A stretch of 64,000 nt of DNA from Longimicrobiales bacterium. Its GTDB lineage: Bacteria; Gemmatimonadota; Gemmatimonadetes; Longimicrobiales; Gaopeijiaceae. Shown one piece after another: positions 519-11,097 of this stretch (positions are counted from its first letter, which is position 1; every line of letters starts with the position of its first letter). The notes below the pieces were generated by a model. That model was not told the DNA's origin. It was given only the letters and a program-made list of their open reading frames with translations, and made no database searches. Both the position numbers and the translations under genes were made by a program. Where the stretch lies: NCBI GenBank assembly GCA_965198065.1, contig CBDAON010000004.1, positions 1,920,001 to 1,984,000 of the forward strand, written 5' to 3'.

Positions 519-557
519 GGGAGGCCTGTTCCGTCTGTGGGTCGATGCTTCCGGACG

Positions 558-1192
558 TCAACGGGCCGGGAACGCAGACGATCCCGGGCCGTGGCGGAAA
601 TACTCCCTGACCGCCGCCTGGAGTTCCTCGAATGGCCGTGGAAGTAGTGATCGGAATCGGCGATCCGAACCAGCGTGACGGAGCCCGGGATTCCATCGAC
701 GAGCTGCTGGACGTCGTCCCCGGACCCGTACTCGTCCTGCTCCCCCTGCACGACGAGGGTAGGCTTTGTGGTCCCGGACAGGAAAGAGAAGTCGTCCAGG
801 GACACTGGTATGCCGAGTCCCACGAGCCCCGCGACCCGCGGGTCGCGAAGGCCCACCCTGAGCCCGACTCGCGACCCGAAGGAGAACCCCCCCACCAGCG
901 CCGGAAGGCTGGGGTGCGCCTCCTGGATCCAGTCGAGCCCGACCCAGGCGTCCTCCTCCTCTCCCGTTCCACCCCCGTAGGTGCCGGTGCTTGCGCCCAC
1001 GCCCCGGAAGTTGAAGCGAAGCACGTGAAAGCCGACGTCCGTGAGCGCCTGCGCGGCCCGGTATACGGCCTTCGTGTGCATCGTGCCGCCATGCTGAGGG
1101 TGAGCATGGCAGAGCACTGCGGCACCACGCACCGGGGGATCGGCGGGCCTCAGGTTCGCCTCCAGGTGACCGTGGCTCACTGGAATCAGCAC
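558..1192 (-). CDS. Alpha/beta hydrolase (frameshift near 631, probably one missing T)
   Basis: HAHPQHGGTM, RFNFRGVG, GFSFG nucleophile motif, QGEQD and DHYF. The C-terminus FEELQAAVREYF...PAR* continues in another frame. Start codon is approximate. Confidence 0.85.
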
Positions 1193-1251
1193 GACCCTAG
1201 CGTCCCGAGTCAGAGTCAGAGGGTCCGCTGGCAGTGATGCGCTTCGGGAGA

Positions 1252-2931
1252 CTAGCGTGTCAGCGGTTTGTACGGGATCCGGCGCGGCTGCGCCGCCCCC
1301 GCCCCAAGGCGTCGGACGCGGTCCTCCTCGTAGGCCTGATAGTTCCCCTCGAACCAACAAACGGTGCAGTCTCCCTCGAATGCCAGGATGTGGGTCGCGA
1401 TCCGATCCAGGAACCAGCGGTCGTGGGAGATCACCGCGGCGCATCCGGGGAAGGAGAGCAGGGCATCCTCGAGGGCTCGAAGCGTGTCCACGTCCAGATC
1501 GTTCGTGGGCTCGTCCAGGAGGAGCACGTTACCTCCGGACTTGAGGAGCTTGGCCAGGTGCAGGCGGTTCCTCTCTCCACCCGACAGCACGCCCATCTTC
1601 TTCTGCTGTTCCGCCCCGCGGAAGTTGAACCACGAGAGGTAGGCGCGCGAGTTCACCTCGGCCCACCCGAAGTCCACGACCTCGTGCCCGCCCGAGACCT
1701 CCTCCCAGACTGTATGGTCTGGGTGGAGGTCGGCGCGGGACTGATCCACGTGGGCGAGCTTCACGGTGGAGCCCACGGTCATCGTCCCCTCGTCCGGTGA
1801 TTCGGTTCCGACGATCATGCGGAAGGTTGTGGTTTTCCCGGCCCCGTTCGGCCCGATGATCCCCACGATCCCCCCCCGTGGCAGACGGAAGCTCACGTTC
1901 TCCATCAGCACGTTGTCGCCGAACGCCTTCGTCACGCCCTCGAAGATCACTACATCGTTTCCGAGACGCGGTGGGCGCGGGATCAGGATCTCGGCGCCCG
2001 CCACCTTTTCCTCCTCGCCCTGCGCCAGCATTTCCTCGTAGGCAGTGATCCGGGCCTTTCCTTTCGCCTGCCGAGCCCGAGGGCTCATGCGGATCCACTC
2101 GAGTTCCCGCTCGAGCGTCTTCCGGCGGGCGCTCGCCTGCTTCTCCTCCTGCGCTAGCCGAGCGCTCTTCTGCTCGAGCCAGGAAGAGTAGTTTCCGTGA
2201 TACGGGTGGCCCTCCCCGCGGTCCAGCTCCAGGATCCATTCGGCCACGTTGTCCAGGAAGTAGCGGTCGTGGGTGACGGCCACGATCGTTCCCTTGAAGT
2301 CCGCGAGATGACGCTCGAGCCAGGCGACTGACTCTGCGTCCAGGTGGTTCGTCGGCTCGTCGAGGAGGAGCAGGTCCGGCTCCTCGAGCAGGACCTTGCA
2401 GAGCGCGACTCGCCTTCGCTCTCCACCCGAAAGGGTCTCGATCTCGACGTCGGACGGGGGGAGGCGAAGCACGTCCATTGCGATCTCGATCTTCCGGTCC
2501 AGATCCCACGCGCCCGTGGCGTCGATTCGATCCTGGAGCCGGGCCTGCTCCTCGAGGAGGGCCTGCATCTCCTCGTCCGACGTGACCTCGCCGAACGCGA
2601 GGTTTACCTCATCGAATCGTGCGAGTAGCGCGCGGGTCTCCTTCACACCCTCTTCCACATTGCCGCGAACGTTCATGGAGGTGTCCAGCCGGGGCTCCTG
2701 CGGGAGGTAGCTCACGCGGGTGCCGCGAGCCGGCCAGGCCTCACCTTGGAAGTCCTGATCGACGCCGGCCATGATGCGGAGGAGGGTGCTCTTTCCGGCG
2801 CCGTTCGGTCCGACGACCCCGATCTTCGCGCCGGGAAAGAATGACAGCCAGATCCCCTTGAGGATCTCGCGCTTGGGCGGAACGACCTTCCGAAGATCTT
2901 TCATCACGTAGATGAACTGGGGCCCGCTCAT
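1252..2931 (-). CDS. ettA: Energy-dependent translational throttle protein EttA (ABC-F)
   Basis: Two ABC cassettes (GPNGAGKST, LSGGE, LDEPTN) and ELEWIRMSPRARQAK linker; 559 aa. Confidence 0.97.
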   Translation of the reverse strand: MSGPQFIYVMKDLRKVVPPKREILKGIWLSFFPGAKIGVVGPNGAGKSTLLRIMAGVDQDFQGEAWPARGTRVSYLPQEPRLDTSMNVRGNVEEGVKETRALLARFDEVNLAFGEVTSDEEMQALLEEQARLQDRIDATGAWDLDRKIEIAMDVLRLPPSDVEIETLSGGERRRVALCKVLLEEPDLLLLDEPTNHLDAESVAWLERHLADFKGTIVAVTHDRYFLDNVAEWILELDRGEGHPYHGNYSSWLEQKSARLAQEEKQASARRKTLERELEWIRMSPRARQAKGKARITAYEEMLAQGEEEKVAGAEILIPRPPRLGNDVVIFEGVTKAFGDNVLMENVSFRLPRGGIVGIIGPNGAGKTTTFRMIVGTESPDEGTMTVGSTVKLAHVDQSRADLHPDHTVWEEVSGGHEVVDFGWAEVNSRAYLSWFNFRGAEQQKKMGVLSGGERNRLHLAKLLKSGGNVLLLDEPTNDLDVDTLRALEDALLSFPGCAAVISHDRWFLDRIATHILAFEGDCTVCWFEGNYQAYEEDRVRRLGAGAAQPRRIPYKPLTR

Positions 2932-3746
2932 GCAGCGGCGCTCCTCCGGTCGGCGGACGAGCGGACGAGCATGACGACCAGCATCGTGGTGCCCAGGATG
3001 CCCATGAGCCCGGAAAAGATCTGCGAGAGGGTGAGCCCCCCCCAGACGATGTCTTCCTCCCGGAGGTACATGAGGCCGAAGCGGATCCAGCCGTAGAGGC
3101 CGATGAAGCTCCAGCTGATGACTCCGCGCGGCGGGCGGAGTCTTTCACGCACGAGGAGCAGGAAGCCGGCGAGCGCGAAGTTCTTCGCCGACTCGTACAG
3201 CTGCGTGGGGTGTCGGCAGCCTTCGGGCGGGCGAGCCATGAACTCGCTCTGGGAGTAGTCCACGCAGACGAGCCCCTCGTAAGGAGTGCCGTACATCTCC
3301 GCGTTCACGAAATTCGCGATCCGCCCGAGCGCCAGCGCGACGGCGACCGGAATCGCGATCCGGTCCAAGAGGTGGAAGAGCCGAATGCCGTAGCGGTGAG
3401 TGAACCATGCCGCGGTGATCAGCACGCCGGTCAGCCCTCCGTGAAACGCGAGGCCGCCCCGCCACACGGAGATCCAGGCCAGGGGATCGATGCCGTATCG
3501 ATCGAACTCGAACACGAAGACGTGGAAGAACCGCGCTCCGACGAGCGCGGCCAGGATCGCCGCCAGAACGAAGTTCTCGGCGGTCTCCTCGGAGAGGTTC
3601 GGGATGCGCTCCTGCCGAGCCGCCTTCCTCAGCGACAGGTACACGAAGAGCATGCCGAGCATGTAGGGAAGGGAATACCATCGCACCCCGAAATCCCCGC
3701 CAAACCGGATGATGAACGGATCGATGTTGTGGAGGATTCGAAGCAA
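2928..3746 (-). CDS. lgt: Prolipoprotein diacylglyceryl transferase
   Basis: VRWY, GARFFHV, GGLAFHGG, GRIANFVNAEMYG and RHPTQLYE motifs. Confidence 0.95.
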   Translation of the reverse strand: MLRILHNIDPFIIRFGGDFGVRWYSLPYMLGMLFVYLSLRKAARQERIPNLSEETAENFVLAAILAALVGARFFHVFVFEFDRYGIDPLAWISVWRGGLAFHGGLTGVLITAAWFTHRYGIRLFHLLDRIAIPVAVALALGRIANFVNAEMYGTPYEGLVCVDYSQSEFMARPPEGCRHPTQLYESAKNFALAGFLLLVRERLRPPRGVISWSFIGLYGWIRFGLMYLREEDIVWGGLTLSQIFSGLMGILGTTMLVVMLVRSSADRRSAAA

Positions 3747-3838: not shown

Positions 3839-4993
3839 TCAGCCCTCCGGCCGAACCGCCTGGAGAACGCACAGGATGAAATCGTCCCACGCCAGCATCT
3901 TGCTGACGACCGGGCGATCGACCCCCTGCTGTGGCACGGCACCCCCGGTGAAGAAAACGACCCGGTCGGCCAGCTCCGGAGCCTCCGCCCTCAAACCTCG
4001 GTAGATGTCGTTGGCCGAGAGATCCCTCAGGTTCAGGTCGAGGAGCACGACGTCCGGTGTTTCGGTCCGTATGCTGCCGACCGCTTGAGCGACGGACGAC
4101 CACCCGACCGGGTCCATCTCCAATGCCTCGGCACCGGAACGGCGAAGCAACCGGCCGAAGGTTCGCCGGACGGCGCTGTCATCGTCCACGATCGTCACGC
4201 AGAGGCCGGCCAGGGGGGAGCGGTCCCGGATCGGGGCCAGGTTCCCGGGCCCGCCTGGCGAGAGCCGTACCTGCCAACCATTGTGGAAAGCGGGAGGACG
4301 ACGCGGAACGTGGCTCCGCAGAGGATCGAGGGGTCCGGCTCGAACGTGAGCCCCCCCCAGCCGTTCGATGCCCCAGCGGGCGAACGAGAGGCCCAGACCG
4401 ACACCCAGGCCCGTTCCCGACACGAACGGGTCGAACAGGTGATCGGCGAGCTCGCGCGACATCCCATCGCCATCGTCTTCCACGCGAATCTCCACCTGCC
4501 CCCCGTCCGCAGTGAGCCTCACGGAGAGGCGGATCTCGGAGCGGGCGTGGCGGGCCGCGTTTCGGAGGAGGTTCCCGATCGCGCGGGAGAAGAAGCTCCG
4601 CGGCCCAGAGACCTGAACGTCCTTGCGGAGCGACGAATTCAGGGTGGTGGTCACGGCGGGGGCTCCCATGAGCCACCGATTCACCACCTCCTCGAGGGTC
4701 CCCTAGACGGGAAAGGTTAGCTCCATCGGTGTCCGGAAGCCCCGCAGCTCATCGAGGACCTCGACGACCATCCGCCGAATCTCCTCCGTGTCCGACTGGA
4801 TGCGGCTGAGCTCTTCCGACGGTGTGCGCCCGAGCGCGGCCTCTTCACGGGCAAGCGAGACGCGGCCCGCGAGAATCGAAAGGAGGCCCCCCAGGTCGTG
4901 GAGGAGCTCGCCCGTGACCCTTCCGAGCTGCCGGAGTCGCTCCTCGCGGTCCAGGGTACCATCCTCGCGCGAGCGCGTACGAGCCTCGGCCAT
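3839..4993 (-). pseudogene. Hybrid histidine kinase (HisKA-HATPase-REC) with no sensor domain, interrupted by an in-frame TAG (4703-4705) and frameshift(s) near 4350
   Basis: H-box LLHDLGG, N-box NLLRNAARH, G1 VEDDGDG, F-box LFDPF, G2 GLGVGLGL, and REC VTIVDDD...VVLLD...FFTG. ORFs 4703-4993 and 3839-4687 share a frame across the TAG. Confidence 0.8.
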
Positions 4994-4998
4994 CGGTC

Positions 4999-5817
4999 CT
5001 ACCTCTTGTCCGCCGCGTCGTCGCGGAACTCTTCGAGCTGACGCAGGAACGCGCTAGACACCGTGTCGAAGGCCCCCCTCTCTCTGAGACCCCGGGGAGT
5101 CTCGGGGATCACCGAGCGGATCGCGCGCCGAAGGGCCTGGTCTCCGGAGTAGCCGCACGCCAGGCCGACGCTGAACACGGTGTGCCCCGGGTCGTCGAGC
5201 AGGGCGGACGCGAACAACACGCGCAGCCAGAGGAGGAGCCGGCGGGGGTTCGGCAGTTGCGATCGGTGGCACCACCTAAGGAGAGTGGAAGGGGAGAACC
5301 CCAGCGATCGGGCCAGGTCCTTCGGATGGCCCCCGATCATGACGGTTTCGACGGCGGCATCCAAGAGCGTTCGTGCCCGGCCGGTCAGGGGAACGCCCGA
5401 ATCGTGCGAAAGGAGGCGTCTGAGCGGCTGCGCCCGAGCGCGGACCAGCCTTCGCGTGAGCGCCACCTGGCTGGAATCCTCGTCGTTCTGGAGGATCTCG
5501 GCTATACCCCACTCTCCGAGAGTCCAGATGTCTCGGTAGCGGGCCGGGGCCGTATCCAGAGCCACGATGACCGTAGACGAGGGAAAGGCGGTGAGGATCT
5601 CGTACAGTGCTGGAGAGGGACCCCCGCCGTTCGTCTGGCCGAGAAACGGATCCACGAGGACGACGGCGGCCGGCGGCGCCTCGCTCACGGCGACCCGCAG
5701 ATCCTCCCAACTGTCCACCATGGAGACTCGGAAGCGGGCGTGCGCAGCGCGCGACACCCTTTCACGGAGGCCCCCGTCCTGATGGAGGAGAAGGAGGGGG
5801 CGGGGGACGAACTTCAT
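4999..5817 (-). CDS. AraC-type HTH transcriptional regulator with a receiver-like N-terminal domain
   Basis: C-terminal PKDLARSLGFSPSTLLRW...TVFSVGLACGYSGDQALRRAIR double HTH; N-terminal LLLLHQD...VVLVD REC-like pattern; ATG at 5817. Confidence 0.8.
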   Translation of the reverse strand: MKFVPRPLLLLHQDGGLRERVSRAAHARFRVSMVDSWEDLRVAVSEAPPAAVVLVDPFLGQTNGGGPSPALYEILTAFPSSTVIVALDTAPARYRDIWTLGEWGIAEILQNDEDSSQVALTRRLVRARAQPLRRLLSHDSGVPLTGRARTLLDAAVETVMIGGHPKDLARSLGFSPSTLLRWCHRSQLPNPRRLLLWLRVLFASALLDDPGHTVFSVGLACGYSGDQALRRAIRSVIPETPRGLRERGAFDTVSSAFLRQLEEFRDDAADKR

Positions 5818-5975
5818 ATACTGACGTAATCCGTTATGGAACTGACGGGATCGGAGTGTGCTGCCCGGCACCGACCAACCCAAATTCGATCCCGTGTGTT
5901 CCCTCGTCGAACATGAACGACACCCTCAGGAAAAGGGGATTATATATCGGGGTTGACGGGCGGGGCTGCGCGCCG

Positions 5976-6164
5976 CTAAGCCTTGCTGCCCGTGTGACGG
6001 GCTGGCTTCTCGGGGCGGTATCTTAAGACCGCCTCAGCCACCTGCTTCGGTGTGGCGCCACCGTACGCGGCTTTCAACGGCTTCTTCTTCTTCTTCTCGG
6101 GTTTCCTCATGGTCATGGCTTCTTCACCTCGGTGGTGACAGATTCGGTTGATGCCTGGGAACAA
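5976..6164 (-). CDS. Small basic hypothetical protein inside the IS end
   Basis: 62-aa ORF (KPEKKKKKPLKAAYGGATPKQVAEAVLRY) lying within the IS boundaries. Confidence 0.4.
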   Translation of the reverse strand: MFPGINRICHHRGEEAMTMRKPEKKKKKPLKAAYGGATPKQVAEAVLRYRPEKPARHTGSKA

Positions 6165-6241
6165 GACAGCCTACTACGGATTTACCGGCATCATCGAGCC
6201 CAGATCCGCGACAAGAATAGCTAGTGCCTTCAATCGGGCCG

Positions 6242-6925
6242 TCAGTTCTCGGGGAACGGCTGGTAGGTCGCGTGCGGGTAGGTGCGCCTGCGGTAGGTAT
6301 CATTCATGGCAGGTGCCTGGGCTCGGCCGGACTCCAGGTAATCGATCAAGTCCCACGCCTCGTCAACTTGCTTGGTAGAGCGGTCCTTCATGCCCACGAC
6401 CGCCGTCTTGCCCACCGAGCCGCGGCCAGCACGGAGCCGCTTCGACGAGTGCTTGTTCTTCTCCCGGCCGCCGACGTAGGTTTCGTCCACTTCGACCGGT
6501 CCTTGGAAGACCATCGGCCCGATGTCGGCGAAGGCTTCCCGGATCCGCTGCTGCATGAACCACGCGGTTTTCTGCGTCACTGAGATGTCGCGGTGCAGCT
6601 TCATCGAGGACACGCCCTTGAGACTCGTGCAGTCCAGGTAGATCGCATAGGCCCACTTGCGAAGCGGAAGGGGCGAGCCCTCCATGACCGTGCCGGTCTT
6701 TGGGGAGAAGTACTTCCGGCAGTCGCGGCACCGATAGGGCATCGTCCGATGGGAGCACTCGTGCGTGTTCAGGCTTCCGCAACGCAGACAGGCCCGCTCC
6801 CCGTCCGGCCAAAGAATCGACTCGAACCACCGGCGGGCCTCGCCTTCGTCCGCGAAGCGGTCCGACAACTCCAACATCGAGATCCCCTTCCGATGAGACT
6901 TGCCGGGCGCCTTGGTGATAGCCAT
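6242..6925 (-). pseudogene. IS1595/ISXO2-like transposase, C-terminally truncated
   Basis: Zn ribbon CLRCG...YRCRDCRKYFS, KGVSSMKLHRDISVTQKTAWFM and VEVDETYVGG. Similarity appears to stop after STKQV, before the remaining DDE residues. Confidence 0.9.
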
Positions 6926-7027
6926 GTAACCTCCTGTCAGTACGCGTCTTACCGTACACTTGAAGGTAACAGTCTACGGCCCGTCTGTCAACCCTGAGAT
7001 ATAAGCCCCCAGGAAAAGGATTGGGTC

Positions 7028-7249
7028 ATACGCAAGCTCCGGCTCCTCGCGGCGGCTATCGCCCTCACCATGACGGCCGCCTGCGGTGACTTCGGCCCTA
7101 CGGCCCCCGAACCTAACGACGCCGAGAACGGGTTCCTCGGGTCGGGCGGTGGCGGCAACGGCTTCCTCGGCTCCGGTGGTGGTGGCAATGGCTTCCTCGG
7201 CTCCGGCGGCGGCGGCAACGGCTTCCTCGGCTCCGGCGGTGGAGGCTGA
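7028..7249 (+). CDS. Small lipoprotein-signal precursor peptide with 4x NGFLGSGGGG repeats (absent from the ORF track)
   Basis: Manual translation: (M/I)RKLRLLAAAIALTMTAAC-GDFGPTAPEPNDAE-(NGFLGSGGGG)4*. AAGGA lies 7 nt upstream of ATA at 7028 (alternative ATG at 7070). Repeat differences are all synonymous, and a terminator follows. Confidence 0.85.
   Translation: MRKLRLLAAAIALTMTAACGDFGPTAPEPNDAENGFLGSGGGGNGFLGSGGGGNGFLGSGGGGNGFLGSGGGG
7127..7246 (+). repeat. Four tandem 30-nt coding repeats
   Basis: aacgggttcctcgggtcgggcggtggcggc / aacggcttcctcggctccggtggtggtggc / aatggcttcctcggctccggcggcggcggc / aacggcttcctcggctccggcggtggaggc. Confidence 0.97.
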
Positions 7250-7270
7250 CGCAATCACCGCGCAGGGGTC

Positions 7271-7322
7271 GAAAGGGGGGAGGCAACGGTGGACTCGGAG
7301 CCTCCCCCCTTCCCTTCTTTGT
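7271..7322. terminator. Hairpin terminator between the convergent peptide and TPR genes
   Basis: gaaaggggggaggc...gcctccccccttc stem followed by ccttctttgtt. Confidence 0.65.
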
Positions 7323-7339
7323 TGCGATCTGCGCGGCAC

Positions 7340-8704
7340 TCACCGGTCGCTCGCGACCGACGCCTCTGCAACCGATGAGCCCTCGGGGGCTCCCGGCGCC
7401 TCTACGCCCACCTGAAGCGAGCGAAGCAGGTCGCGAGCCAGGCGGTCCGCTTCATCGGTCGACGCTGCTGGGGTCGCCGTGCGGAGTGCCCGCGCGGCCT
7501 TGACGTCAGCGTGGATCTCTTCCATGACGGACTCCGCGAGCAGCCGCACCCGCCCTTCCCGACGAGCGCGGGCGACGGACTCGGCCAGGTGAGCCGCTTC
7601 ACCGGCCTCGTCGTGGCGGCCCAGCATGAGGGCGCCCCGCGCCACCTCCACCCAGGACTCGGACACTCCCGGAGCGGGCTCGCACCGGCCGAGCTCGTTG
7701 CGCGCCCAGTCGAACGCGTCGGTGTCCCCGAGCCCCCCGGCCGCACGCGCGACGGAGCCGAGAACGGTCGGCCGCTCCACGGGCCCGACCCTCCCGAGGG
7801 TCTCGAGAAAGACCGGGAGGGCGTGCCGGCAGTCTCCGCTCTCGAGCCAGAAGTAGGCGATGTCGTGCGCGAGCCGCGGGAGACCCGAGTGGCCGCGACT
7901 GTGGGCCGCGACCGCCTCGCGGGCGTAGCTGAAGGCCCGGTCCGGGTTACCCGCCTGCCATTCCAGAGTAAAAAGGTCGTGCAGGGACCAGGCCTCGCCG
8001 TCACGGAGGCCCTGCCGCCTCGAGCGGCGAAGGGCCTTGAGAATGCTTCGACGCGCGGCCGGGATCACCCCACGGCGAAGCATCATGACGCCGTGCTGGA
8101 GGTACGCGCGGACATACGCCTCCCAGTCGCGCGCCTGGCGAGCGAGCCCGACGGCCCGATAGAGCCATGCCTCCGCGCGGCCGTATTGCGCCAGGTCCCT
8201 CGACGTGCGGCCAACGGCGAGGGCGAACGCCGGATCCGCCGGGCAAGAAAGAGCAGCGGCTTGGAGGAATTCGAGCTCGGTGCGGCGATGGCCGCGCCCC
8301 TCTGCCCAGGTCGCAATTCGCCGGCAGGCGACGGCGACGAACCCGGGGTCGGCACGTTCGGGCTCCGACAGGACCGGGATCAGGTCCTCGAGCGCTTCCG
8401 TGAGTGCGGGCTCGTCGGCCGGCGCCGTGGCGAGGATCTCCAGCTGCCGCCGATCGGCCGCACCATCATCGAACAGTTTCCAGCGGGAAGCGGCGCCCAC
8501 ATCGGCCCAAAGGATCACGGATCGGAGGGACTTCCAGAGGACGCACCCGAGCTCGCCTCCGATCTCTCCGAGGACAACGAGTCCCTCCGGACCGGGCCCG
8601 TCCCCGTCGTGGACCAGAGGAGGAGGAATCCTCCAGCGCCTCTTCGCGACGGTGGGGTTCGTTTCGCGCGTTGGCGCACCGCGTCCGAGCTCGGCTGCTC
8701 GCAT
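7340..8704 (-). CDS. Tetratricopeptide repeat (TPR) protein, about 454 aa, no DNA-binding or catalytic domain recognised
   Basis: Helical repeats such as LAQYGRAEAWLYRAVGLARQARDWEAYVRAYLQHG, AWSLHDLFTLEWQAGNPDRAFSYAREA and LAHDIAYFWLESGD. ATG at 8704 chosen because the ORF extension to 9229 overlaps another gene. Confidence 0.8.
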   Translation of the reverse strand: MRAAELGRGAPTRETNPTVAKRRWRIPPPLVHDGDGPGPEGLVVLGEIGGELGCVLWKSLRSVILWADVGAASRWKLFDDGAADRRQLEILATAPADEPALTEALEDLIPVLSEPERADPGFVAVACRRIATWAEGRGHRRTELEFLQAAALSCPADPAFALAVGRTSRDLAQYGRAEAWLYRAVGLARQARDWEAYVRAYLQHGVMMLRRGVIPAARRSILKALRRSRRQGLRDGEAWSLHDLFTLEWQAGNPDRAFSYAREAVAAHSRGHSGLPRLAHDIAYFWLESGDCRHALPVFLETLGRVGPVERPTVLGSVARAAGGLGDTDAFDWARNELGRCEPAPGVSESWVEVARGALMLGRHDEAGEAAHLAESVARARREGRVRLLAESVMEEIHADVKAARALRTATPAASTDEADRLARDLLRSLQVGVEAPGAPEGSSVAEASVASDR

Positions 8705-8913
8705 TCGGCCTCCGTGAGCGTGATCACTGTCTGGACCGTGCCGCTCATAGAGTTTCAAGCTAAAACCCCGAGAGGGCCCAGGTCCAGAGTGCCAAGACTC
8801 CTGCAGGGCGCCGGTCCAACAGCGCCCTCGTGGATCCAGTGGCTGGACGACGGGCCGAAACGATCCGTACGCCCCAGCCCGGGCTCCCGGGGTGTCAATC
8901 AGGCAGGCCGGGC

Positions 8914-9696
8914 CTACGGAGTCCCCACCGGAGCGCCTTCGAGAAGGGTTCGCACGGGAGGCGGCAGCTCCAGCTCGGCGGCGGTTACCCCGTTCAGCTC
9001 GACGCTCGTCACCGTGACCTCTTGGTCCTGGCCCATCACGCGCTGAATCATCCGCATGGGAATGAGCATGCCGCCGTGCTCGCGGTAATCGGAAAGGAGC
9101 GTTGTGACGGGGAGGGGCCCCATGGGCGTGAGCTCGACGTCCTCGGATGCGATGAGGAGCCCGCTGTCCGCCGAGAAGCAGTCGTGGCTTTCGCGCCCGG
9201 AGGCCCATTCGAGTCGCACCCTCCAGCACGCTTCCCCTTCGAACTCGGACAGCTCCACTGTCTCGCGTCCGGGCACGATCTCAGGATCGCGGAGGTCTCC
9301 CAGCACGTGCGCGCGCTCCCGGGCCTGCTCCAACTCGGCTCCCTCGAGGAGCATGGGGCCGAGCAGCGAGTTCATGCTCCAGCCCACGCGGCCGTCGTAG
9401 CCGAGCACCTGCTCTCCGATGCCAGGCAGAGTGGCCCGAAACACGCTCTGGTCCGGGAGAATCTGGATCACCTCGAACTCCCCCTCGATCCCAAGCCCGG
9501 CCATGGACACGGTTCCGGTGGTGCGAATGCTCAACGGTGCCAGATGCGCGTCGCTTCCCCCAATGGCTTCCACGTACCTCCTGATCAGGTCGTCCGCCGC
9601 GGGTAGCTCCTGGGCCCGGAGGGAAGGCGAGAGGAGAAGGAGGGCGAAGCCCAGGGCCGTATGAATCGAACGCTGTCTCATTATCGGTGTCTCCAT
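8914..9696 (-). CDS. Secreted beta-rich protein (DUF620/lipoprotein-sorting-like)
   Basis: Signal peptide ending LRA-QE; ADDLIRRYVEAIGG N-terminal motif; SDYREHGGMLIP C-terminal motif. Confidence 0.7.
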   Translation of the reverse strand: METPIMRQRSIHTALGFALLLLSPSLRAQELPAADDLIRRYVEAIGGSDAHLAPLSIRTTGTVSMAGLGIEGEFEVIQILPDQSVFRATLPGIGEQVLGYDGRVGWSMNSLLGPMLLEGAELEQARERAHVLGDLRDPEIVPGRETVELSEFEGEACWRVRLEWASGRESHDCFSADSGLLIASEDVELTPMGPLPVTTLLSDYREHGGMLIPMRMIQRVMGQDQEVTVTSVELNGVTAAELELPPPVRTLLEGAPVGTP

Positions 9697-9705
9697 ATGG
9701 CTCGG

Positions 9706-11097
9706 TCAGCGGGGGCCCGATACGGGGGCCGACGCACCCGGAAGCGAGCCCAGCCAGTCCAACGCAGCTGCGAGCGCGACGTCCCTCCCCGCGAGGAGGG
9801 ACTCACGGCTCGGTGCTCGCGGGACATCGGGCTGCACTCCCGACCCCTCGAGCCGCGATCCGTCCGGTGCCGTGAAGTCGGCGACCACGTGCATCATGCG
9901 GTCCCCATTGGGCAGTTCCACGACGACTGCCGGAAGCGCCTGACCGGCCGTGGGCTCCCCGAACAGCCGGGCGCGACCGAGCGCTTGGAGGCCCGCCGCG
10001 AAGAACTCCGAGGTGCTGGCGGTCAGCGGATCCACGAGGATGGCCACCGGTCCCGCGTAGGGCTCCACGCGGCGCCCGTCCGGAGCGACGCGCTGAGGGT
10101 TCACGACGAACTGGAGCTCCGTGTCCCGGGTACGCATCGCGCCGAGGCTGACGGGCTCGTCGAGGAAGTGCCCCCCGATCCCCATGGCGAGGGCGCCGAG
10201 CCTCCCGGGGTTCCCCCGGAGATCCAGCACGATGCCGTGGGCATCGCGCAGTTCGTCCACGGCCGCGGCGACGGCGGGCACGATCGCCGGGAACCAGGCT
10301 GACCAGCGGACGACTCCGACCCGCTGGCCGCCGGTCAGGATCTCCTCCCGGAAGTCGGCGTCCACGCGAAGCGGCGGGAGATTTCCGAAGCGCACCTCCT
10401 CCCCTGCCGGAGGAGCACGGTCGACGTCGAAAACGATGGGCGCACTGGAACCGTCCCGAAACCCAAGCCGGACCGGCGTTCCCTCTGGTCCGAGCAGCCG
10501 CCGCTCGACGGCTTCCGGGAGCCAGAGCGCGAACTCGCGTTCCTCCGTGCGATCGGGAACGGCCGCCCGGATCCGCTGGACCAGGCTGTCTACCGGAAGG
10601 CCTGCGATGGACTCGAGGATCCAGCCGGGTTGAATGCCTGCGACGGCCGCGGGGCTTTCCTCTCGGACTCGCGCGACCACGACCGCGCCGTCCAGCCAGC
10701 GGATGCCCAGGCCAGGGCTCGCGTTGCCCTGCGGCGGACCGACCGGATCCACGCCCAACAGCCCCACCGCCGAGCCGGGAATGATCGTGAAGTGCGACTC
10801 TCCGAGCCGCCCGAGCATCTCGGACAACACGCGCCGAAGCTCGCTCGGGCTCTCGGCCGCGACCGCACGCGGCCGGAGCTCCGCACGCACCGCATCCCAA
10901 TCCAGGCCGCGCATGCCGGGGTCGTAGTATGTGTCGCGTATCCGATTCCACACGAAGTCGAACGTGACCTGCGGGGAAGCCGTCCCCGGGGAGGAGGGAG
11001 GCTGACGGAGCGCGGCGGCGGCCGGCGGCGAAAGAACGGAAACGGCGACGCCTACCGCGAACAGGCCACGCCTGCCGTTCCTGGGTGAAGTCAACAC
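9706..11097 (-). CDS. S41-family peptidase with PDZ domain (secreted)
   Basis: Signal peptide; PDZ SPAAVAGIQPG; IVLDLRGNPG; TASTSEFFAAG catalytic Ser region; LEGSGVQPD. Confidence 0.9.
   Translation of the reverse strand: MLTSPRNGRRGLFAVGVAVSVLSPPAAAALRQPPSSPGTASPQVTFDFVWNRIRDTYYDPGMRGLDWDAVRAELRPRAVAAESPSELRRVLSEMLGRLGESHFTIIPGSAVGLLGVDPVGPPQGNASPGLGIRWLDGAVVVARVREESPAAVAGIQPGWILESIAGLPVDSLVQRIRAAVPDRTEEREFALWLPEAVERRLLGPEGTPVRLGFRDGSSAPIVFDVDRAPPAGEEVRFGNLPPLRVDADFREEILTGGQRVGVVRWSAWFPAIVPAVAAAVDELRDAHGIVLDLRGNPGRLGALAMGIGGHFLDEPVSLGAMRTRDTELQFVVNPQRVAPDGRRVEPYAGPVAILVDPLTASTSEFFAAGLQALGRARLFGEPTAGQALPAVVVELPNGDRMMHVVADFTAPDGSRLEGSGVQPDVPRAPSRESLLAGRDVALAAALDWLGSLPGASAPVSGPR

Follow-up and report, generated by a model that had tools for sequence, protein, structure and literature searches.

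Can a bacterium with an outer membrane run a peptide switch of the Rap-Phr type, in which a cytoplasmic tetratricopeptide repeat (TPR) protein is paired with a small exported propeptide? The question is raised by a locus (positions 3839 to 8704) in a stretch of 64,000 nucleotides, referred to here as the window, from a Longimicrobiales bacterium of the phylum Gemmatimonadota (contig CBDAON010000004.1, positions 1,920,001 to 1,984,000). The locus holds a hybrid kinase, an AraC-type regulator, a small lipoprotein with a Gly-rich repeated tail and a TPR protein. The original prediction, made from the letters of the window, joined these four genes into one signalling system. We found that the conserved unit consists of the TPR protein, the convergent small lipoprotein and a divergent pseudo-receiver AraC protein.

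Conservation of the cassette

The TPR gene (7340..8704, minus strand) has an open frame and encodes a cytoplasmic, all-helical protein of 454 amino acids, likely the peptide receptor. The lipoprotein gene (7028..7249, plus strand, 73 amino acids) converges on it at a distance of 91 bp. The hairpin that had been predicted between the two stop codons was found, with its stem at about 7273–7311 (z = −3.1 and −5.4, one value per strand), and is likely a shared terminator. It is absent from the list of a simple terminator scan, and a sigma-70 promoter scan of 5700–9000 found none. An insertion sequence (IS) separates the lipoprotein gene from the AraC gene (4999..5817, minus strand, 272 amino acids, open frame) and the kinase gene (3839..4993, minus strand). 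In two studies, runs X3 and X7 yielded same-species contigs that have an empty IS site and join position 5926 to 7010, confirming the contiguous order and the strands expected without the IS: kinase (−), AraC (−), peptide (+) and TPR (−).

Linkage was examined in loci with relatives of the TPR protein (L001–L210), which provided 140 distinct, complete TPR genes followed by 700 nt or more of sequence; near-identical strains were left unmerged. The lipoprotein detector required a lipobox, and plain signal peptides were uncounted. A convergent small lipoprotein was present at 103 of the 140 loci, as against 12 of 841 other long open reading frames (ORFs) in the same loci and 22 of 3,120 ORFs in the window's genome. 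Enrichment of repeat peptides beside TPR homologs had been proposed as a check; small lipoproteins, repeated or not, are clearly enriched there. The lipoproteins carry a loose G-x-G motif in 79 of the 103 cases and a hydrophobic-GSG motif in 49. Two of them lay more than 150 nt from the TPR gene, and one of these (L086) looks false. When the window and genome G037 (one locus, L033) were excluded, the count was 101/138. An AraC gene on the same strand as the TPR gene and transcribed away from the peptide gene was found at 62 of the 120 loci whose flank was long enough. Filtering left 23 of the 25 distant loci L108–L132; these had the lipoprotein in 23/23 cases and the AraC gene in 22/23. Their peptides end in other tails, for example in KPWG, in NSNTC-like sequences or in repeated DYVNPL-type units. 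Because these 23 distant loci carry other tails, GSG is a motif of one branch.

The relatives of the TPR protein that have names belong to Gemmatimonadota, many of them to Longimicrobiaceae. Matches occurred in 24 of 61 related genomes (own family 11/36, a second family 12/12, a third 0/12) and, across the phylum, in 37 of 251 genomes, with seven candidates scored in each; clustering at 50% identity gave 1,069 clusters with E up to 1e-30. The protein is single-copy in the window's genome, and the second family has up to 24 TPR matches in one genome. Only one further genome of the genus was searched, G001 (92% complete, 1.6 Mb); it contains lgt, and these queries gave no match in it for the TPR, AraC or kinase genes. 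LpxC was detected in the window's genome; the host is therefore lipopolysaccharide (LPS)-bearing, as had been supposed.

Co-variation of the peptide core with the TPR protein

Co-variation between peptide and TPR protein had also been suggested as a check. It was run on 71 pairs with a TPR score of at least 150 bits, stop codons within 150 nt of each other and a core that could be anchored (L032 was re-anchored), of which 58 remained after dereplication at 80%. Each core position was compared with every one of 404 TPR columns.

A Ser at core position +2 was accompanied by D243 in 53 of 55 pairs, a non-Ser residue by D243 in 3 of 16, and Thr by E243 in 5 of 6. At position +3, Asp or Pro went with Q242 in 4/4 pairs, and all other residues with His242 in 67/67. 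At +4, Asn was paired with Asp or Glu at 239 in 11/17 cases, compared with 1/25 for Gly. The top-ranked columns were 243 for +2 (p = 1e-6), 242 for +3 (2e-6) and 239 for +4 (3e-4), and the three residues lie at i, i+3 and i+4 on a single predicted helix (234–250). For Phe at core position 0, column 278 ranked first; for Ile, Leu or Met at the same position there was no clear column. That three consecutive core positions each pick a residue of one helix as the best of 404 argues, at the level of sequence, for direct contact between peptide and TPR protein, and we consider it probable that the protein binds the peptide.

The +2 result was examined further on a tree (FastTree, without columns 232–252 and 318–328; one long-branch warning). 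Phylogenetically independent pairs (n = 10) changed the same way 6.2 times and the other way 0 times, with a median p of 0.031. D243 was present in 56 of 71 TPR proteins with a neighbouring peptide and in 14 of 35 without one; for D281 the figures were 71/71 and 28/35. It may be noted that the 35 orphan TPR proteins (e.g., in L063–L102) often occur in tandem arrays, with Gly243 in 15 of them; they may be ligand-blind or may share peptides.

The small lipoprotein

By our own pattern the precursor appears to be of the Sec/signal peptidase II (SPII) type, with a basic n-region, a hydrophobic h-region and a lipobox Cys (7082–7084). After a short linker it carries four head-to-tail NGFLGSGGGG units, encoded by four 30-bp repeats at 7127..7246 (plus strand), and it belongs to no Pfam family. 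The repeats differ at the DNA level in third codon positions alone (seven variable columns), and the repeat peptide of the original prediction is upheld. Protein records hold alleles of the same species (P0293–P0295) and a relative (P0296). Two units instead of four occur in the other same-species alleles X3, P0294 and P0295, X3 lacking 7130–7189. Collapse of the contig is an unlikely source of the two-unit allele, the longest exact repeat in the block being 26 nt and two protein records having two units.

In 58 relatives the mature part measures 23–85 residues. The core stands at the very C-terminus in 40 of these peptides and is repeated in 9. At least two extra Cys residues occur in the mature part of 14 of the 58 (e.g., L026, L042, L149), often with one just before the core, and a disulfide loop is possible. 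An in-frame ATG inside the signal peptide (7070–7249) could yield a product of 59 residues without an export signal, that is, a cytoplasmic ligand.

Gly-rich repeats, and a window ORF that has no standard start codon, are what one would expect if unrelated genes had come together by chance or if the small ORF were a spurious low-complexity frame. Such an explanation is very hard to credit: it is contradicted by the linkage counts (103/140 vs 12/841 and 22/3,120), by the restriction of repeat differences to third positions, by Met-initiated alleles and by the co-variation.

Fold of the TPR protein

The Pfam match to TPR_12 (E = 1e-6) scored 29.3 bits, just under the cut-off of 30.1, and most relatives measure 400–460 residues. 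The structural model is all-helical, with a predicted local distance difference test (pLDDT) score of 91 and a predicted template modelling (pTM) score of 0.83. The protein has no signal or membrane segment, and no helix-turn-helix (HTH) was found in the model or by Pfam, which gives TPR alone.

When the model was compared with 48,161 chains, the top matches were LGN (Z 21.2, root-mean-square deviation 4.9, 288 residues aligned), RapH (20.6, 3.9, 284) and Pins (20.4). These were followed by Rap of pLS20 (20.1, 7.4, 314), whose alignment covers model residues 51–384 at 13% identity and reaches the N-terminal part, and by RapI (19.8), MalT domain III (19.5) and Rap of phi105 (19.1); NprR-NprX scored 16.1. 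The top matches are near-ties at 9–15% identity. The modelled protein looks like Rap; descent from Rap is not implied. The pairing of peptide and TPR protein that had been proposed is supported by the enrichment, the residue-level co-variation, a Rap-like fold among ties and the conserved AraC linkage.

The AraC regulator and its tandem box

The regulator contains an AraC-type HTH (HTH_18, E = 1e-11). Its N-terminal domain, which had been read as a receiver, gave no Response_reg match in Pfam. With the receiver positions assigned in this analysis, D56 is kept in 34 of 43 family members, the acidic-pocket position is His in 34, the Thr/Ser position is Ala in 36, and there is no conserved Lys. 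The predicted receiver–AraC architecture thus stood for the HTH and the Asp, but the pocket residues are lost. Since the Asp alone is kept and Pfam gave no match, the domain is probably not a phosphorylation target.

Five bp before the AraC start lies a pair of 9-bp boxes with a period of 21 bp (5822..5851, plus strand), found at the same place and spacing in 7 orthologous loci and likely an operator. With a matrix built from those 7 loci alone, the window site ranked first in the 3.05-Mb genome (24.6 vs 20.6 for the next), the next 14 sites listed scoring 20.6 or less. A period of 21 bp is typical of AraC sites. We infer that the AraC protein would bind the tandem box and activate the peptide gene, and that it may repress its own gene.

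The hybrid kinase

The kinase gene matches HisKA (weakly, E = 0.014), HATPase_c and Response_reg. No hydrophobic segment above 1.6 occurs in it or in its orthologues, which share the HisKA-HATPase-REC layout and are likewise free of membrane segments; a search limited to 155–494 residues gave 28 of 30 relatives at 380–414. The receiver Asp, Thr and Lys are kept in 6/6 aligned orthologues and the phospho-His in 5/6. An intact kinase, with His, N, G1, F and G2 boxes and the receiver, is seen in protein record P0263 and in 5 of the 6 orthologues. One orthologue, L135:4354-5529, has lost the His and part of the ATP lid and kept the receiver, a pseudokinase form.

The gene and domains of the predicted sensor-less hybrid kinase are thus present, but the window copy is not intact. 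An in-frame TAG stands at 4703–4705, and a −2/+2 pair of indels at about 4350 and 4260 scrambles some 30 codons where the ATPase domain ends, the family-like sequence of these codons sitting in another frame. P0263 is a whole kinase of 384 residues with Glu where the window has TAG, and P0265 is a piece of 162 residues with one frameshift. Assembly error and recoding were rejected as sources of the TAG: the alleles of the window recur in run X1, the stop is also present in X8, and Glu is encoded at this place in X3, X7 and P0263.

Could the TPR protein bind the peptide and serve this kinase as its missing sensor, or act on the kinase receiver as a phosphatase of the Rap type? The kinase does lack a sensor and a membrane segment, its phosphorelay residues are largely kept among orthologues, and RapH-Spo0F is among the top fold matches. 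The kinase type was also found directly behind the AraC gene in each of the 8 genomes (of 61 related ones) that have it at E 1e-45, at most 32 candidates being scored per genome. However, it adjoins the cassette at 5 of the 76 TPR loci with 3 kb of flank and at 5 of the 34 of those with AraC, leaving 71 and 29 loci without it. In the close relatives L133, L136 and L082 lgt occupies the place where the kinase would be, and L135 has lost the His. The kinase has decayed in the window while the TPR and AraC frames stayed open, and the AraC domain has not kept the residues of a working receiver. We therefore regard this alternative as quite improbable.

Given its presence at 5/76 loci and in 8/61 genomes, and its broken state in the window, the sensor-less kinase is an add-on found in a single subclade, unlikely to be the main target of the TPR protein. 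It is likely an output co-transcribed behind the AraC gene rather than that target. Of the four-gene system first proposed, the TPR–peptide–AraC linkage holds and the kinase does not; likewise, where control of the kinase or of the AraC protein had been offered, the kinase is the less tenable choice.

Other cassettes are followed by genes for phosphopantetheinyl transferases, HAD hydrolases or aldo-keto reductases or by a nonribosomal peptide synthetase (NRPS)-like gene (89 ORFs at 34 loci). Cassettes of the multi-copy branch that lie beside a phosphopantetheinyl transferase or NRPS-like gene are those of L083, L140, L146, L150, L154, L155, L161 and L163, a hint of control over secondary metabolism.

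Decay of the window copy

The IS element (5935..7009, minus strand; transposase 6925–6242) has inverted ends and matches DDE_Tnp_IS1595 and Zn_ribbon_IS1595. It is flanked by an 8-bp target-site duplication at 5927..5934 and 7010..7017, the left copy lying at the site that is empty in X3 and X7, and the right copy overlapping the purine-rich leader of the peptide gene. An 8-bp duplication is the length known for the IS1595 family, and the ISXO2-like DDE domain, the zinc ribbon and the terminal inverted repeats are also present. The transposase is short, 227 residues as against 312 for a paralogue in the same genome. More than a dozen related IS1595-type transposases match in this genome at 36–64% identity, none near-identical. 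The insertion separates the peptide gene from the tandem box by 1,083 bp.

Strains were compared by runs X1, X3, X7 and X8, with one contig each at depths of 2–9. Among the 17 runs listed, none was of RNA, which bears on expression neither way. Run X1 has the same alleles as the window. Run X8 has the kinase stop and the IS junctions in common with the window, and of the two indels it has the one near 4350 but not the one at 4260. Both X3 and X7 have a sense codon at the kinase stop. In X3 both indels are reversed; the X7 kinase has a net shift of one base, which at a depth of 2.2 may be an error.

The peptide ORF of the window strain begins with ATA (7028–7030). The start is ATG in 7/7 aligned orthologous loci, 99 of the 103 detected peptides have a Met start, and the IS-free allele P0295 has a Met at an internal position equivalent to the ATA. 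Because the kinase is broken, the peptide start is ATA and the IS stands between box and peptide gene, the circuit is probably off in the window strain, with its TPR and AraC frames still open. These three fresh lesions suggest that it is undergoing loss. The decay is a point that the original prediction missed, and it makes the window copy a poor test object. On the other hand, a natural knock-out series is formed within one species by alleles that have or lack the IS, the stop and the start codon.

Relation to known systems

Computational criteria for RRNPP systems, as given in the accessible part of PMC10075063, are a propeptide of 10–100 residues exported through signal peptidase I (SPII at a relaxed level), a receptor of 250–500 residues, TPRs and adjacency. 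Four of these five describe the cassette (73-residue propeptide, 454-residue receptor, TPRs, adjacent genes), and its lipoprotein-type export signal falls at the relaxed level. The same part of that source describes intracellular TPR peptide receptors from Bacillota and their mobile elements. The relatives of the cassette belong to Gemmatimonadota, outside this host range; hence, the cassette would work like Rap-Phr but is not filed as an RRNPP member.

Like Rap-Phr, it has a cytoplasmic TPR protein of 250–500 residues without a DNA-binding domain, an adjacent small propeptide with a predicted export signal and a short C-terminal core. The core is sometimes repeated, as several pheromone copies are known from some Phr propeptides (accessible part of PMC11343458). 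Many paralogues and orphans per genome and fold matches at Z 19–20.6 are further likenesses. Unlike Rap-Phr, the host is a diderm with LpxC, the propeptide is a lipoprotein and the two genes are convergent. The putative target, the pseudo-receiver AraC protein, lies inside the cassette, divergent from the peptide. Identity of the TPR protein to Rap chains is 10–13%, and no Rap appeared among the PDB profile matches listed. RapF acts on a separate transcription factor, ComA, and anchors its peptide by Asn227 and Asp194 (accessible part of PMC3601957), whereas the conserved groove candidates of the cassette are the His-Asp pairs 242–243 and 280–281.

A TPR receptor beside a small propeptide is also found with NprR (NprR-NprX, Z 16.1), PlcR, Rgg, PrgX, AimR and ComR. 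Unlike these one-component regulators, the cassette TPR protein gave no HTH in its model or Pfam matches, and DNA binding falls to a separate AraC protein. Enterococcal sex pheromones are cut from lipoprotein signal peptides, and a lipoprotein precursor thus feeds an RRNPP-type receptor. There, the signal sequence is the pheromone, whereas in the cassette it is the tail at the C-terminus of the mature lipoprotein that co-varies. Tied as best structural matches are LGN/Pins and MalT domain III (Z 21.2, 20.4 and 19.5), and LGN binds extended peptides in its groove, as entry titles state. Their likeness is one of general fold, at 13–15% identity, and gene context is not shared.

In filamentous cyanobacteria the PatX-PatP-HetR system exports a precursor that is processed to HRGTGR and acts on a cytoplasmic regulator (accessible parts of PMC12756182 and PMC7761841). 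As far as these parts describe it, it shares with the cassette a diderm host, a small exported precursor and a short peptide with a G-S/T-G core; unlike the cassette, its receptor is the transcription factor HetR, not a TPR protein, and no AraC cassette is involved. The common G-S/T-G core is probably a coincidence. No description of the cassette was found in the literature searched, which consisted mostly of papers outside subscription, and term searches for "Gram-negative" gave no hit in the main texts of PMC9765709 and PMC12700828. The claim that no such system is known in LPS-bearing lineages can be kept for TPR receptors within that literature, but for exported peptides it must yield to PatX-PatP-HetR.

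The proposed route and its alternatives

We favour, with modest confidence, the reading that TPR protein, small lipoprotein and AraC protein form a Rap-Phr-like switch in Gemmatimonadota, working by the following complete route. The lipoprotein precursor would be exported and lipidated. A C-terminal core of 7–8 residues (here G-F-L-G-S-G-G) would then be cut off, re-enter cells and bind in the groove of the TPR protein. The peptide-bound TPR protein would free the AraC protein, which would in turn activate the peptide gene through the tandem box, giving positive feedback. Processing and re-import of the peptide as a signal between cells appear somewhat probable; the AraC protein as the target of the TPR protein, together with the sign of control, we lean towards slightly. 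The anti-activator step is borrowed by analogy from RapF-ComA, as the accessible part of PMC3601957 presents it. The genome has two peptide-binding proteins of the SBP_bac_5 type (Opp/Dpp-type), with no link to the cassette.

Several points weigh against this reading. The lipid anchor must be cut before the peptide could diffuse, and neither a protease nor an importer is linked to the cassette; the S41 peptidase near the TPR gene of the window was not found beside relatives. The present detector gave no peptide at 37 of the 140 TPR loci, an AraC gene is missing alongside at 58 of 120, and the tandem-box matrix fits 6 of 70 peptide–AraC intergenic regions, all of this subclade. The co-varying columns were discovered and tested on the same data. 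Independent-pair tests were not significant for +3 (2:0) or +4 (4.5:0.5, p = 0.125), core positions −1 and −2 single out no TPR column clearly, and over whole proteins the Mantel test gave a weak correlation (rho = 0.175; 24 of 2,000 permutations). The fold ties with LGN and MalT domain III, and Foldseek and a PDB sequence-profile search returned general TPR proteins with no Rap or RRNPP protein among the matches listed, a result that excludes nothing.

An alternative without processing or import is an export checkpoint within one cell, in which the TPR protein binds the tail of precursor that has not been exported or lipidated and so reports Sec/Lgt traffic. The position of lgt, the prolipoprotein diacylglyceryl transferase gene (2928..3746, minus strand; sole copy in the genome), speaks for it: of the 9 genomes with this type of lgt, 7 have the gene immediately after the cassette and on the same strand as AraC, whether or not the kinase stands between. 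The missing linkage to a protease or importer and the C-terminal core (40/58 peptides) also suit a checkpoint, and the co-variation fits it equally well. Nevertheless, one genome can contain as many as 24 TPR matches, peptide cores differ among them, and cores are repeated in 9/58 peptides, all of which is hard to reconcile with one housekeeping checkpoint. The lgt linkage is restricted to one clade, and the extra Cys residues in 14/58 peptides would suggest maturation outside the cytoplasm. On balance, a checkpoint seems unlikely.

The Rap-Phr-like route supposes a freely diffusing peptide. The lipoprotein might instead stay anchored, move by outer membrane vesicles or membrane exchange and be clipped in the recipient, giving kin recognition and not density sensing. 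All 103 detected partners have a lipobox, as the detector required, and cores and repeat numbers vary between close relatives, as such delivery would allow. No transfer machinery is linked to the cassette, and the present data do not separate this mode from free diffusion; we consider it improbable.

Neighbouring genes

The lgt gene is a conserved neighbour in this clade rather than an established part of the system. Besides the window, it adjoins the cassette in L077, L079, L080, L082, L133 and L136, where co-transcription is possible; of the two remaining genomes with this lgt type, one has it 2.3 kb away and the other lacks the cassette. That lgt might be a dedicated extra copy was rejected, as it is single-copy in 5/5 genomes. 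Upstream of the TPR gene (8914–11097) lie an S41 peptidase with PDZ and Tricorn_C1 domains and an exported protein of 260 residues without a Pfam match. The peptidase (9706–11097) and its neighbour were rejected as dedicated processing genes, being absent beside every relative among the loci compared. An alpha/beta-hydrolase-like gene (about 540–1200, minus strand) shows by eye an apparent frame shift near 633, close to its 3' end, which may be another young lesion.

Implications for Gemmatimonadota

The window contributes a kinase that is accessory to one subclade, a code at the level of residues together with its test on independent pairs, a tandem operator and, in a single species, alleles both live and dead. 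A wider reading, which falls somewhat short of probable and is offered tentatively, is that Gemmatimonadota may use a many-channel, Rap-Phr-type peptide language between cells and across two membranes, with up to two dozen channels per genome. Short cores would be released from the lipoprotein precursors and recognised through a simple code of residues along a single TPR helix; in one subclade the signal would feed a sensor-less phosphorelay, and strains of a single species would differ in having live or dead alleles. The putative code, held no more firmly than the reading it belongs to, pairs Ser with Asp243, Thr with Glu243, Asp with Gln242 and Asn with Glu239. The co-variation defines exact swaps, such as peptide Ser to Thr together with D243E, and the tandem box is a ready reporter. 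The cassette raises the question of the route by which a lipid-anchored precursor becomes a cytoplasmic ligand. A phylum-wide counterpart of Rap-Phr in these abundant and little-cultured diderms would extend signalling through TPR receptors across the outer membrane.

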